Positions 19,789 through 30,066 of a stretch of DNA of 45,762 nt are shown one piece after another (position 1 is the stretch's first letter; each line of letters starts with the position of its first letter). A program made the translations under genes and the position numbers. Under the pieces are notes generated by a model. That model worked only from the letters and a program-made list of their open reading frames with translations. It did not search any database and was not told the DNA's origin. The DNA is from a virus: IMG/VR virus record IMGVR_UViG_3300040985_000986, positions 1-45,762 of that record, one strand, 5' to 3'.

Positions 19789-22700
19789 TTAGCGCCGCCC
19801 CGTGAAAGCAGACATGGCAGAGGGCTCGATCTTTTCTTCGTCGAAGAGGTCGAAGCCCCGGCGCAAGCGCTGCGTGATTACGTGCAGCGGTATGCCGACC
19901 ATCTTAGCTGCGAGCTCCATTGAGTTGAGCACGTCGGAGCGGTCGGCGCCGTCTTCGAGCAAGTTCGCTGCGGTGCGGCCTATCTGGTCGATGATGGCGA
20001 TAGCAGCTGGGTCAGGCATACGCTGCTGGAAGGCGAGGTCACGAGACAGTGACGGCACGACGAGCGGAACCGCCTTAGCACCGAGCGTGCCGGCGAAGGC
20101 GCCGACGGGGCCTAGCGAACGTGGTATCGCCAGCGCTGTCATCAGCAGCGGGTCGATCAGCCATGTGTCGAGCGCGTCTTTCTCCTCGTCATCCTCTGCG
20201 CGGAAAGCTGTTGCGATGAGTTCGCCGATGAACAGGGTGAAGAACCCGGCCATTGCCTCCTTCGACATGACTACGCGCACGACCCACATGGCGCGCGTGC
20301 CGTCGTTTTGTCTTCGGGCAAGTGTCGCGCGACGCATTGCGGACGCTCGCATCGAGCCGAGTGACAGGAACCAGGACAAGAATTGGGTCCACATCTTGGC
20401 GAAGCGACCGCCCTTCTCAACCTTTGCCATCGCAGTGACGGCAGTATCTGCCTGCGTGCGCCGGACAGCACCGTCGGCGGCGTTGATGGCTTGGCGGTTG
20501 CCCTTGCCCTCGTCGATGGCTTGTGCGTAGGCGCCCCGCCAGACGATCAGGTCGACAGGGTGCTGGATGATCTCCTGCATCCAGTAGGTGTTCTTGGATA
20601 GCCAGCGCTGGGCTTCCTTCACCGACTGGAACTTGCCCGACTCGACCAAGTTGAGAACTCGGTTCTGCATCTCGAACGCCGAGACGCCCAGCCTGTGCCT
20701 GGTCGCCATGAACGGCGACAACTCGTAGATCTCAGCCTTGGTGTGACCTCCGCTTATGCCTTCCATCAAGAAACGCGTTTTGACCTGCCCCGACATTTGC
20801 GCGAGCAGCACGCCCGTCACACCTTGCAGCGAGTTGACCACGTTGGCGAACATCGCGGCCGTGCCGTAGTTCGAGCGCAGCTTGTCGACAAAGTCGATGC
20901 CGTCGAGCATGTCGGCGCCGCGGGCGCTGACCAAGGTGCTCGATAGCGTCGCCGCCGTCTCCATCAGCGGGTCGAGGATGTTCTTGTAGATGCCAGGAGA
21001 TAGGCGCTCCAGCAGCGACTCTACGTCTCTCTGCCTGAGCAATGTTGCGACCTTCTTATGCGCCGGGCCCATCTGCGCGAAGATGATCGCCTGCCGGAAG
21101 TGCATGATCTGGTTGATCGGGTTGATGTCCAGCGGGTCTGGGTCTGGCTCATCGACGCGGTTCTTTGTGTGCCCCTTGTTGATCGTGGCGATGGATCGCT
21201 GGAAACCCAGCAGGGTGTCTTGCGCATTCCGTTCGCCTTTCGGTGACCGTAGCTTCGGATCACGCCCCGCCGGCACGTAGCCCCCTTGCACTTTGACGAC
21301 GGTGCCGTCCTCCATTACGCGCTGACCGAGCACGGACAAGCCCTTGTCCACGAGCTCCATGCGCCTGCCGAGCATCGCGTAGTGGGCTTCCTGCGTCATC
21401 GGCAGGAGCTCCTCTTCGTAGATGTTCCACACGCCCTGGCAGAACTCCCAGTCGGCTTTCGTAACGATGCCGGCCGCTTCCCACTGGCGGACCTGCTCCC
21501 ACCACCTGGTCGCGTCAATGCTGCCGTCAGCCCTCTCTGTCGCCCAGCCAAAGCCCAGCAGTAGGCGGCGGAGGTTCGAGAGGTTACCGCAGTGCAGGAG
21601 CATCCCGAGGATGTCCATCTTGCCGTTGTCGAGGACGTCTGGGTCTTGGGTCTTCCGGCTGCGATCGGGCAGCAGCGGCGCCCCTGTGGCGTCGGTGCCT
21701 GTCGTGATCGGCCGCGATAGCTCGGCGCTTGCGCCGACCTCGTCGCGCACCATGCGCAGCAGGGGTTCCAGCTTCTCGATCACGGCCGCTAGATTGATCT
21801 CGACCTGGTCCTCTGCGTTGCGCAGCGGGACGAAGATCAGCTGCGAAAGTAGCCCCTGATCGTCGCCATCCATAGCGAAGAGCAGCGCCTCGACCCGCTG
21901 GGTCGTGTAGTTCCACTGCCGGATCTTGCCCTTGATGTCCTCGCGCGTCGTAGTCTTGCGCGACTTCTCTGGCGTCCCTTCGGCCTCCACCTGCTCGCGC
22001 AGGCGCCGGATGATCTCGTCCAGTTGCGCGGTTCGCCCTTCGAGCTCGAACATGCGAGCCCACTTACCTTGCACCAGCACACCCTCGACGTATTCGAGCG
22101 ACTCCATAGCCTGCTCGACGGTCTGCTGCATGAGCGTGCCGTCCGTCGAGATCACTGACTCTACGTCGCCGAGAGCCTGCTCCAGCATCTGGCGTTCGGG
22201 GTCGGCCTCGGACAGCCCGGTCCACGGCGGCCCTTGGTCGCGGAGACCTGAGCCAACCTCGACGCCTAGCAGGTCGAGCATCAGACGCGCGGTCTCGATA
22301 GTCGCGCCGCCATAGTTTCGGGCTAGCGTGTCCTCTCTCTTGCCGTTGCCGGGGCGGAACTTCAGCCTGGACTTCAGCTTGTCGCTGTGCTTCTCGATAG
22401 CGGCTCGCGTCCGCACGGCTTCGTTGGCCATGGCCCTGAAGTAAAGCGCAGTCCGCTGGTGCAGCCCGACCTTCGACGGATCGCCGCGGTGCATAGCGGC
22501 CTTCCTCTCCGCGCGGCGAGCCTGCTCAGTGAACGAGCGAACCAAGTTCTTGCGGCCGAACAAGTCACCTGCCGTGAGCTTCGCGACGTCCCGACGTGCG
22601 ATCTCCTTGGCCACCCGCACCATCTCTTGGTAGGTCGGCGGTAGCTTCTCCATCAGCTTGATCTCGGCGGCCCGCAGTTTGACGATCGCCTCGTTGCTGA

Positions 22701-30066: not shown

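Follow-up and report, generated by a model that had tools for sequence, protein, structure and literature searches.

A giant polyvalent protein in the gp16 slot of a BPP-1/epsilon15-type podovirus: a probable ejection protein built as a scaffold for exchangeable enzyme cargo

What is a protein of 3,425 residues doing at the end of the virion genes of a podovirus? The window, by which we mean the whole stretch of 45,762 nucleotides that was analysed (IMG/VR virus record IMGVR_UViG_3300040985_000986, positions 1 to 45,762), carries on its minus strand, at 19789..30066, one unbroken open reading frame (ORF) of 10,278 nt, or 3,425 codons, which starts with GTG and whose translation has a mass of 379 kDa. 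The two ends of the window are an exact 107-bp direct repeat (positions 1-107 and 45656-45762), which may be either the overlap of a circular assembly or a terminal repeat; because of this repeat the unit genome is taken as 45,655 bp, and the giant ORF makes up 22.5% of it. A sequence-only reading of the same DNA had described exactly this ORF, with a share of about 22%, and had taken its product for a polyvalent protein in the position of a T7-type ejection protein. The analysis presented here indicates that the giant protein is probably an ejection protein of internal virion protein class D (IVP-D, the class of T7 gp16) of a BPP-1/epsilon15-type podovirus, built as a cargo-carrying scaffold. 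Its architecture is a conserved two-part scaffold with an exchangeable cargo cassette between the parts, and this arrangement is found throughout its family.

The assignment to the gp16 class follows from the position of the gene, from homology to Bbp10 of phage BPP-1 and from the published placing of Bbp10 in the IVP-D class. The giant gene is the last and largest of the series of internal virion protein genes downstream of the nozzle gene. The order here is an adaptor-containing ORF, the nozzle, a protein of 214 residues, a protein of 747 residues and the giant protein, and BPP-1 has the same order (bbp14-13-12-11-10). BLASTP aligns the giant protein with Bbp10 over aa 1937-2217 (E 4e-24) and aa 2868-3421 (E 6e-18), and Table 2 of Hardies 2016 (PMC4819975) names Bbp10 among the IVP-D homologues. 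By tblastn, the C-terminal 1,500 residues have homologues at the corresponding position in BPP-1 (Bbp10, 2,052 aa), Caulobacter phage Jess A (gp39c), Pseudomonas phage AF (gp16), Acinetobacter phage Ab9, Limnohabitans phage DC33, Octadecabacter virus OANV1 (gp16, 2,986 aa) and Podoviridae sp. ctQRb9 (3,209 aa). Gene order and core homology to Bbp10 within the same bbp order thus both support the gp16 slot proposed from the letters of the DNA. The T7-like gene order proposed with it holds for the nozzle, the 214-residue protein, the 747-residue protein and the giant gene; the adaptor, which had been read as a gene of its own, is the end of a 1,426-residue ORF.

The family was surveyed with the N-terminal 720 residues. 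A HMMER search with aa 1-720 gave 375 representative clusters at E <= 0.001, so that the N-terminal scaffold is common to at least 375; those representatives that reach 1,500 aa, 143 in number, were used as the comparison set. The N-terminal part of the scaffold comprises about 770 residues and consists of an LPD22 domain, a hydrophobic hairpin, a conserved helical segment and an LPD23 domain (the coordinates of all parts of the giant gene are on the minus strand). Its conserved beginning, aa 30-370 (28957..29979), is kept in 121 of the 143 long representatives and includes LPD22 at aa 57-140 (29647-29898; Pfam, 41.5 bits against a cut-off of 28.6, E 1.6e-10). Hydropathy peaks mark a Gly/Ala/Pro-rich hydrophobic hairpin at aa 202-242 (29341-29463). 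A second conserved segment at aa 435-700 (27967..28764) forms the second matched stretch in many of the representative matches; it is present in 94 of the 143 and is modelled with a pLDDT of about 90. LPD23 follows at aa 717-772 (27751..27918; Pfam PF18838, E 1.5e-15, 57.1 bits against a cut-off of 27), a domain that also occurs in gp16 of Pseudomonas phage AF. The AF2 model of aa 1-720 has a pLDDT of 77.9, with an all-helical N-terminal segment and low confidence at aa 208-235. A Foldseek search of this model against the Protein Data Bank (PDB) gave no credible match (probability <=0.16, TM <0.15), and its lookalikes are helical bundles, for example ABC-transporter membrane domains and alpha-pore-forming toxins.

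The C-terminal core, of about 1,490 residues, starts with an HExxH module and continues through a long, charged and helical region and hydrophobic helices to a basic C-terminus. The PHROGs profile phrog_9880 matches aa 1926-3398 with an E-value of 1e-129. The HExxH module opens the core (see below), and the remainder, aa 2101-3425 (19792..23766), is the Bbp10-like (IVP-D) part proper, matched by phrog_9880 and, in tblastn and BLASTP, by Bbp10 and the proteins of Jess A, AF, Ab9 and DC33. Its first portion is an R/E/K-rich helical stretch at aa 2100-2600; the region of this composition noted from the sequence is real, with R, E and K together accounting for 21-36% of residues across aa 2101-2600. 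The hydrophobic strings noted near both termini were also located, at aa 207-241 and aa 3271-3288, the latter within the C-terminal hydrophobic segments of aa 3262-3350 (20017-20283). The core ends in a basic ...TGRR, and an end of the form [IL][TS]GR(R) is conserved in the family. Hydrophobic C-terminal helices and a positively charged C-terminus are accordingly present, and similar C-terminal features have been reported for T7 gp16 and its homologues (PMC8954989). Only two cysteines occur among the 3,425 residues, both of them in the core (LLHCGN and EFCQG).

That the scaffold-plus-variable-cargo design is family-wide follows from the survey of representatives and from the collinearity of the scaffold parts. 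Among the 143, the HExxH module of the core (HExxH-1960) is found in 135, the N-terminal scaffold in 121 and the C-terminal core in 115; scaffold and core occur together in 117, and in 116 of these they are collinear. The modules carried between them are much more sporadic: an ADP-ribosyltransferase (ART) in 46, LPD23 in 13, the first HExxH module of the giant protein (MPT1) in 8 and its glycosylase-like module in 4. The representatives have a median length of 2,324 aa; 26 have at least 3,000 aa, 11 at least 3,425 aa, and the longest has 4,390 aa. Of the relatives, P0140 (3,146 aa) comes closest, with an identity of 70% in the core and 52% in the N-terminus, and it has no match to aa 1153-1937. 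Pfam searches of the relatives show an N-terminal LPD22 and a variable effector in every BPP-1-like relative examined: the effector is a PBECR1 RNase in BPP-1 Bbp10, ART-PolyVal in Jess A, OANV1 and ctQRb9, and LPD23 in Pseudomonas phage AF, and metagenomic relatives add an acetyltransferase and other LPD domains. The giant protein is therefore a new, large and divergent member of this family, with a core at most 31% identical to that of any isolate phage. A megablast search with the giant ORF against 50,697 phage records gave no match, so the ORF is without a close sequenced relative at the DNA level.

One of the cargo modules is an ADP-ribosyltransferase at aa 1740-1920 (24307..24849). The Pfam family ART-PolyVal (PF18760) matches aa 1782-1918 with an E-value of 2.5e-16 and 61.2 bits (cut-off 31.2), over positions 1-139 of the 140 in the profile. 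The catalytic configuration of ART-PolyVal is H-Y-D (Iyer 2017, PMC5512222). In the 46 family ART modules, H1792 is conserved in 93% and D1886 in 98%; the tyrosine was not placed in the alignment. ARTs are the commonest macromolecule-modifying enzymes of polyvalent proteins (Iyer 2017, PMC5512222; PMC9503650).

Two further modules, which may be metallopeptidases of zincin-like type, carry an HExxH motif. The first, MPT1, lies at aa 860-1115 (26722..27489) and has its motif, HEIQH, at aa 926-930 (27277-27291). It is matched by phrog_13543 and, in tblastn, by phages F116, AF and Dartukuta, and has sub-threshold Pfam matches to Peptidase_M78 (17.7 bits against a cut-off of 22), DUF6782 and SprT; the motifs HPxLFxAYPxL, LHExQHxIQxxEGFxxG and YxxAGExEAR are conserved in 8 sequences. 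The second, MPT2, is the module at aa 1938-2100 (23767..24255) that opens the core and is present in 135 of the 143 representatives. Its motif, HEFAH, is at aa 1960-1964 (24175-24189), and the pattern T..HE..H with a downstream E..A..E.....G.AP is conserved in 140 sequences; in the 27-sequence core alignment (A2) H35, E36, H39 and E93 are nearly invariant. Both modules thus have a conserved Glu-containing motif downstream of HExxH, in 8 and 140 sequences respectively.

The largest cargo module, aa 1160-1672 (25051..26589), resembles a DNA glycosylase/lyase of the HhH-GPD (Ogg2-like) type, as indicated by an AF2 model, Foldseek and motif alignment. The model, computed from a 45-sequence alignment (A1), has a pLDDT of 93.8 and a pTM of 0.92. 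The top four Foldseek matches in the PDB, 3knt_A, 3n0u_C, 3n0u_A and 3fhg, are all Ogg2-type 8-oxoguanine DNA glycosylase/lyases, from three organisms, with a probability of 1.00, a target-normalised TM of 0.68-0.72 and E-values of 0.03-0.13, while all other matches have a probability of at most 0.16. Model and matches agree in the two-lobed helical fold with a helix-hairpin-helix. A phmmer alignment sets GIDNK(1425)...VLD(1443)R of the giant protein on GIGYK...IIDR of MjOgg (3fhf, 3knt), over the helix-hairpin-helix. The lysine of MjOgg and the aspartate 18 residues later are the catalytic pair of that enzyme. Lys1425 (25792-25794) and Asp1443 (25738-25740), which are likewise 18 residues apart and are invariant in the 45 sequences, are the candidate catalytic residues here. 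The module contains no cysteine and so cannot hold an iron-sulfur cluster; absence of such a cluster suits the Ogg2/AlkA type better than the EndoIII/MutY type. Its C-terminal half includes the invariant strings GRYHWESW and QEASHGTL, for which Ogg2 has no counterpart.

The module has 135 homologous clusters, many at 50-60% identity, most of which are stand-alone proteins of about 750 aa; over 100 podovirus clusters encode it. Examples of stand-alone homologues, which range from 568 to 755 aa, are encoded at L003:10001-12268, L005:10001-11953 and L008:10001-11707, and in the podovirus contigs L003, L004 and L005 the stand-alone protein comes directly after the genes for a gp14-like (~203 aa) and a gp15-like (~590 aa) protein. 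A P22-like contig, where a lysozyme-like gene is the neighbour, and a contig from a bacterial genome assembly each have a stand-alone homologue as well. A fold search of the model against BFVD returned only entries named 'Uncharacterized protein', and the A1 profile found nothing among PDB sequences. The word 'glycosylase' is absent from the main text of Iyer 2017 (PMC5512222), which suggests that a glycosylase-like module of HhH-GPD type extends the published list of polyvalent domains. It is the sole element of the giant protein for which no description was found, and it appears undescribed. We tentatively suggest, as one possibility and not the favoured one, that aa 1160-1672 is the founding case of a widespread phage-delivered DNA glycosylase/AP-lyase family, packed by podoviruses either in fused form or as a stand-alone protein of ~750 aa, injected with the genome and acting before gene expression.

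Composition and distribution both bear on how the cargo came to lie between the scaffold parts. The scaffold has a GC content at third codon positions (GC3) of 0.78-0.81, the glycosylase-like module one of 0.72 and the ART one of 0.62, a dip that extends over 24307-26589 and that is consistent with acquisition of the cargo from lower-GC sources, apart from the scaffold. Three other giant members of the family carry the glycosylase-like module; their scaffolds are about 26% identical to the one described here, while the module is 52-55% identical in two of them, and the module has therefore either been swapped horizontally or is far more constrained than its carrier. In one related metagenomic contig, L007, the ART precedes the glycosylase-like module, the reverse of the order in the window.

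The at least four enzyme-like modules predicted from the sequence can thus be named as two HExxH modules, one ADP-ribosyltransferase and one DNA-glycosylase-like module. Domain and structure searches did find enzyme-type domains, with ART-PolyVal above its Pfam cut-off and Ogg2 matches in Foldseek. The predicted polyvalent identity is likewise borne out, since LPD22, LPD23 and ART-PolyVal all exceed the Pfam gathering cut-offs. At least two unrelated biochemistries are represented in the one polypeptide (ART-PolyVal, the HhH-GPD-like module and the two HExxH modules), and the gene lies among late virion genes in an operon shared with the capsid and protease genes. What did not stand is the claim that enzyme cargo in an ejection-protein slot would be new: the idea has been published (Hardies 2016, Iyer 2017), the design is family-wide, and giants of 3,000-4,390 aa are common.

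Several results weigh against the reading of the giant protein as a gp16-class ejection protein with enzyme cargo. The core profile A2 shows no significant relation to epsilon15 gp16 or gp17, T7 gp16 or the N4 gp50 C-terminus (hhalign probability below 5% in each case, with 0.2% for T7 gp16 and 0.5% for epsilon15 gp17), although the targets of these comparisons were single sequences, which makes for low sensitivity, whereas the link drawn in Hardies 2016 used family profiles of the targets. The same profile found nothing among PDB sequences, T7 gp16 included. Since the direct profile comparisons are not significant, it is synteny and Hardies 2016 that tie the giant protein to T7 gp16. The 747-residue neighbour has no homologue by tblastn in the 50,697 phage records. 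Both HExxH modules are below the Pfam cut-offs, so that their support comes from motifs and not from significant profile matches. The phmmer match of the glycosylase-like module to MjOgg has an E-value of 0.36-0.9, which is not significant by itself; at E <= 0.01 the 45 members of A1 match only ART-PolyVal in Pfam, in two of them, and no glycosylase family; and the assignment as a glycosylase is accordingly made at the level of fold and motif only, from a predicted model. A literature search found no experiment on the giant protein or a close relative. Lastly, a capsid of this class would be heavily loaded by four copies of 379 kDa. No readable evidence came from a search for virion proteomics of Bbp10 homologues. 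In epsilon15 itself (L014 9670-14330), the stretch from the gp15 gene to where the internal-protein series ends contains gp16 (634 aa) and gp17 (918 aa). The top hhalign placements, which are not significant, put epsilon15 gp16 on the N-terminal scaffold after the hairpin and gp17 on the C-terminal core, which hints that epsilon15 carries the same scaffold split in two genes and without cargo.

Four other explanations of the giant gene were weighed. It is very improbable that an error of assembly or sequencing has fused two or more genes into an artificial ORF. A frame of 3,425 stop-free codons would arise by chance with a probability of about 1e-44 at the base composition of the window, GC3 is high along the entire ORF, P0140 is collinear with it at both ends, and the N-terminal scaffold and core are collinear in one polypeptide in 116 of the 143 long representatives; a single polypeptide is thus the family norm. 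What speaks for an artefact is contig L007 (L007:2107-2400), where a cargo part and the core have separate gene calls with 48 nt between them. We considered this contig as evidence that the core is normally a separate gene and rejected it, because the frame of its core gene is open upstream of the called ATG and encodes there, in the same frame, the junction motif 'GVLEQAARGGARGGFDP'; the split points instead to a frameshift, either a sequencing error or real. It is also rather improbable, if less so, that the protein is a late cytoplasmic or lysis protein which never enters the virion. This would fit the GenBank labels of relatives ('lysin containing a beta/gamma crystallin motif' and 'lysis protein' on Bbp10, OANV1 gp16 and Jess A gp39c), but the crystallin/lysin label was dropped as neither such a motif nor a muralytic domain was found by Pfam and PHROGs, and no muralytic or holin-like domain was detected in the giant protein by Pfam, PHROGs, NCBIfam or PADLOC. 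The gene moreover sits inside the tail and internal-protein operon, with a 1-base overlap with the gene upstream, Bbp10 is counted among the IVP-D homologues (Hardies 2016, PMC4819975), and the lysis genes of relatives lie elsewhere. A purely structural role, in which the protein is a component of the ejectosome or channel and its enzyme-like modules are inactive relics or spacers, is unlikely too. The scaffold is indeed long, helical, charged and hydrophobic at both ends, its N-terminal model has no enzyme-like match in the PDB, and the HExxH modules fall short of the Pfam cut-offs; yet relics would hardly be expected to retain an invariant Lys and Asp in 45 glycosylase-like sequences with 50-60% identity across distant phages, H1792 and D1886 in 93-98% of 46 ART modules, or HExxH with its downstream Glu in 140 sequences, and the cargo is exchanged between scaffolds, not decaying in place.

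A stronger contender, although one we still consider less likely than an intact ejection protein, is a polyprotein: the chain would be cut at its junctions before or during packaging, either through self-cleavage by the HExxH modules or by the prohead protease, so that the virion would hold separate proteins and some of the cargo would perhaps not be packaged. Each of the four module borders has a string of the form F/L-x-Q-Q/F-G/A/N, namely at aa 714-719, 1150-1154, 1731-1735 and 1927-1938 (27909-27926, 26604-26618, 24861-24875 and 24255-24290, respectively; F-x-Q-Q/F-G/A at aa 715, 1151, 1732 and 1927). The 'R|G-x-F-D-P' start of the HExxH-bearing core is preceded, at a distance of 5-10 residues, by a hydrophobic-hydrophobic-x-Q motif in about 40 members of the family. 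The HExxH modules, or the head protease for which the genome has a gene (phrog_458), may use these junction motifs as sites of processing or docking. The occurrence of the glycosylase-like module as a separate protein in other podoviruses, and the two gene calls in L007, would also suit a chain that is cut. On the other hand, the motif pattern was defined after the sequence had been inspected, for which reason its shuffle value of 0.002 is not an unbiased test; the split in L007 resembles a frameshift; and N4 gp50, in which there is a similar HExxH module, is packaged without processing (Iyer 2017, PMC5512222). We keep the cargo-carrying ejection protein as the preferred reading, with processing at the junctions as a possible step within it.

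The start of the giant protein deserves comment, as the public gene call differs. Its GTG overlaps the TAG stop of the 747-residue gene by 1 base and is preceded by GGAG. Read from the GTG, the protein begins with MGGFSGVPAFNDPDF, which is homologous to the N-terminal residues MTDFSSVPKTDFNDPGF of the relative P0141; because of this match the GTG start, and with it the longer form, is preferred. The public call, P0138, is a protein of 3,385 aa that begins with the ATG codon of residue 41 and agrees at every position of aa 41-3425 (100% identity). It is probably 40 residues short, because the 40 residues in question (29947-30066) are kept in P0141 and P0139. For the giant protein as a whole, phmmer against PDB sequences gave a chance match in the coiled-coil region only, and NCBIfam and PADLOC gave nothing meaningful.

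The rest of the genome is that of a podovirus of BPP-1/epsilon15 type. Terminase, portal, head protease and major head protein are encoded on the strand of the giant gene, with the head (prohead) protease gene at 42928..43611, and so is a primase/helicase; a family-A DNA polymerase, a helicase and an exonuclease are on the opposite strand. The nozzle (tubular tail protein B, 1,079 aa) at 32954..36193 (-) matches phrog_376 (E 2e-126) and is 42-46% identical to BPP-1 Bbp13. Next to it, at 32309..32953 (-), the 214-residue protein in the gp14 (IVP-B) slot matches phrog_418, 'internal virion protein' (E 2.6e-7), and is 30% identical to BPP-1 Bbp12 (E 2e-8). The 747-residue protein at 30066..32309 (-) is placed in the gp15 (IVP-C) slot by its position, its size and one weak match to phrog_1044, 'endolysin' (E 7.5e-4). 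It has no match to Bbp11 in BLASTP and, unlike Bbp11, neither a Pfam domain nor a recognisable lytic transglycosylase. The adaptor (tubular tail protein A) domain at 36217..36837 (-) is recognised by phrog_394 (E 5.6e-34, ORF aa 1213-1418) and is 31% identical to Bbp14; instead of being a separate small gene it forms the C-terminal ~215 residues of the 1,426-residue ORF at 36190..40470 (-). The N-terminal extension of this ORF, of 1,211 residues, has a sub-threshold Pfam match to SASA (sialate O-acetylesterase-like) at aa 1058-1122 and no tblastn match in the 50,697 phage records. A large enzyme-like extension fused in front of an adaptor is unusual.

How the giant protein might work can be proposed from its parts, packaging, ejection, processing and every enzymatic activity being what we infer here. 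A few copies would be packaged in the core of the capsid above the portal, beside the 214- and 747-residue proteins. Upon infection, the internal proteins would leave through the tail, before the DNA or along with it. A channel across the envelope may be built with the help of the hydrophobic hairpin, the hydrophobic helices near the C-terminus, the basic end and the core, and the cargo would gain the cytoplasm ahead of any phage gene expression. This cargo, the replaceable cassette between the scaffold parts, would here consist of a metallopeptidase-like HExxH module, the Ogg2-like glycosylase/lyase-like module and the ADP-ribosyltransferase. The ADP-ribosyltransferase would use NAD+ to modify host macromolecules, as T4 Alt does, and the glycosylase-like module would act on DNA. 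The HExxH modules may cleave the chain at the conserved junction motifs and so free the cargo.

A gp16-class ejection protein that doubles as a carrier of enzymes is a design on record. Internal virion proteins have been described as hosting 'domains destined for the cytoplasm', H66 gp60 is a structural protein that combines IVP-D homology with a methylase site, and IVP-D homology has been found in the C-terminal domain of N4 gp50 (Hardies 2016, PMC4819975). Polyvalent proteins have been predicted to be virion-embedded, injected arrays of effectors (Iyer 2017, PMC5512222, and a 2022 follow-up, PMC9503650). In a 2026 preprint on the Cp2-like Xanthomonas phage PhiXacm4-11, the syntenic gp33, gp34 and gp35 (2,300 aa) are assigned as core proteins, with no PDB similarity found for gp35. 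Because the design is on record (Hardies 2016, Iyer 2017), the value of the giant gene is that of a well-resolved example, with clean module borders, a conserved junction motif and evidence from composition for separate acquisition of the cargo; in BPP-1/epsilon15-type podoviruses the design is the rule. The Ogg2-like module is possibly of greater weight: strongly conserved and without a Pfam family, it is encoded by many podoviruses among their internal virion proteins, in the same cassette. If it is a glycosylase, it may excise modified bases that are host-specific or installed by a defence system, or it may nick the host chromosome, which would be the mirror image of the bacterial glycosylases that defend against phages. 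If it is active and delivered with the DNA, base excision would join ADP-ribosylation, RNases and RNA polymerases among the weapons of the first minute of phage infection.

Comparison with known systems places both the cargo and its carrier. The glycosylase-like module shares its fold and the helix-hairpin-helix Lys...Asp with the Ogg2/AGOG enzymes (3knt, 3fhf, 3n0u, 3fhg), at an identity of ~11-14% and without a significant sequence E-value; it differs from them in length (~510 aa as compared with ~207 aa), in its additional conserved C-terminal half and in its context, a virion-protein cassette and not cellular DNA repair. T4 Alt is, like the module of the giant protein, an ADP-ribosyltransferase, and it is packaged in the head and injected so as to act before phage expression (PMC9503650); the module described here belongs to another family, ART-PolyVal, and is fused to an ejection protein instead of being a separate head protein.

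For the carrier, T7 gp16 and the IVP-D proteins offer the same location, last and largest after gp14-like and gp15-like genes. T7 gp16 and the giant protein are both helical, with C-terminal hydrophobic helices and a basic C-terminus; the giant protein is 2.6x longer, has no N-terminal lytic transglycosylase domain and carries enzymes of a cytoplasmic type. The virion RNA polymerase N4 gp50 (3,500 aa) is a giant that is virion-packaged and ejected, in which an N-terminal injection region is followed by enzyme cargo, an HExxH module and, at the C-terminus, a region required for encapsidation (Iyer 2017, PMC5512222). The layout of the giant protein resembles this one. Locally the two proteins align best at the HExxH motif, and this alignment is weak and only suggestive (pairwise E 0.02, hhalign probability 0.9%). 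N4 belongs to a different phage family, and the giant protein has no RNA polymerase module: Pfam, PHROGs and NCBIfam detect no RNA polymerase family in it, and it has no PDB sequence match to the N4 virion RNA polymerase.

The same-slot proteins of BPP-1-like phages are at once the nearest and the most instructive comparison. Core identity to them is 24-31%, the giant protein is longer (3,425 aa as against 2,039-3,209 aa), and its glycosylase-like module is present in none of Bbp10, AF, Jess A, OANV1 and ctQRb9; shared with them are the gene order, the N-terminal LPD22, the homologous core and a variable effector between the two. With the polyvalent proteins, finally, it has in common multiple unrelated effectors in one chain, the domains LPD22, LPD23 and ART-PolyVal, the HExxH modules and a location among the late genes.

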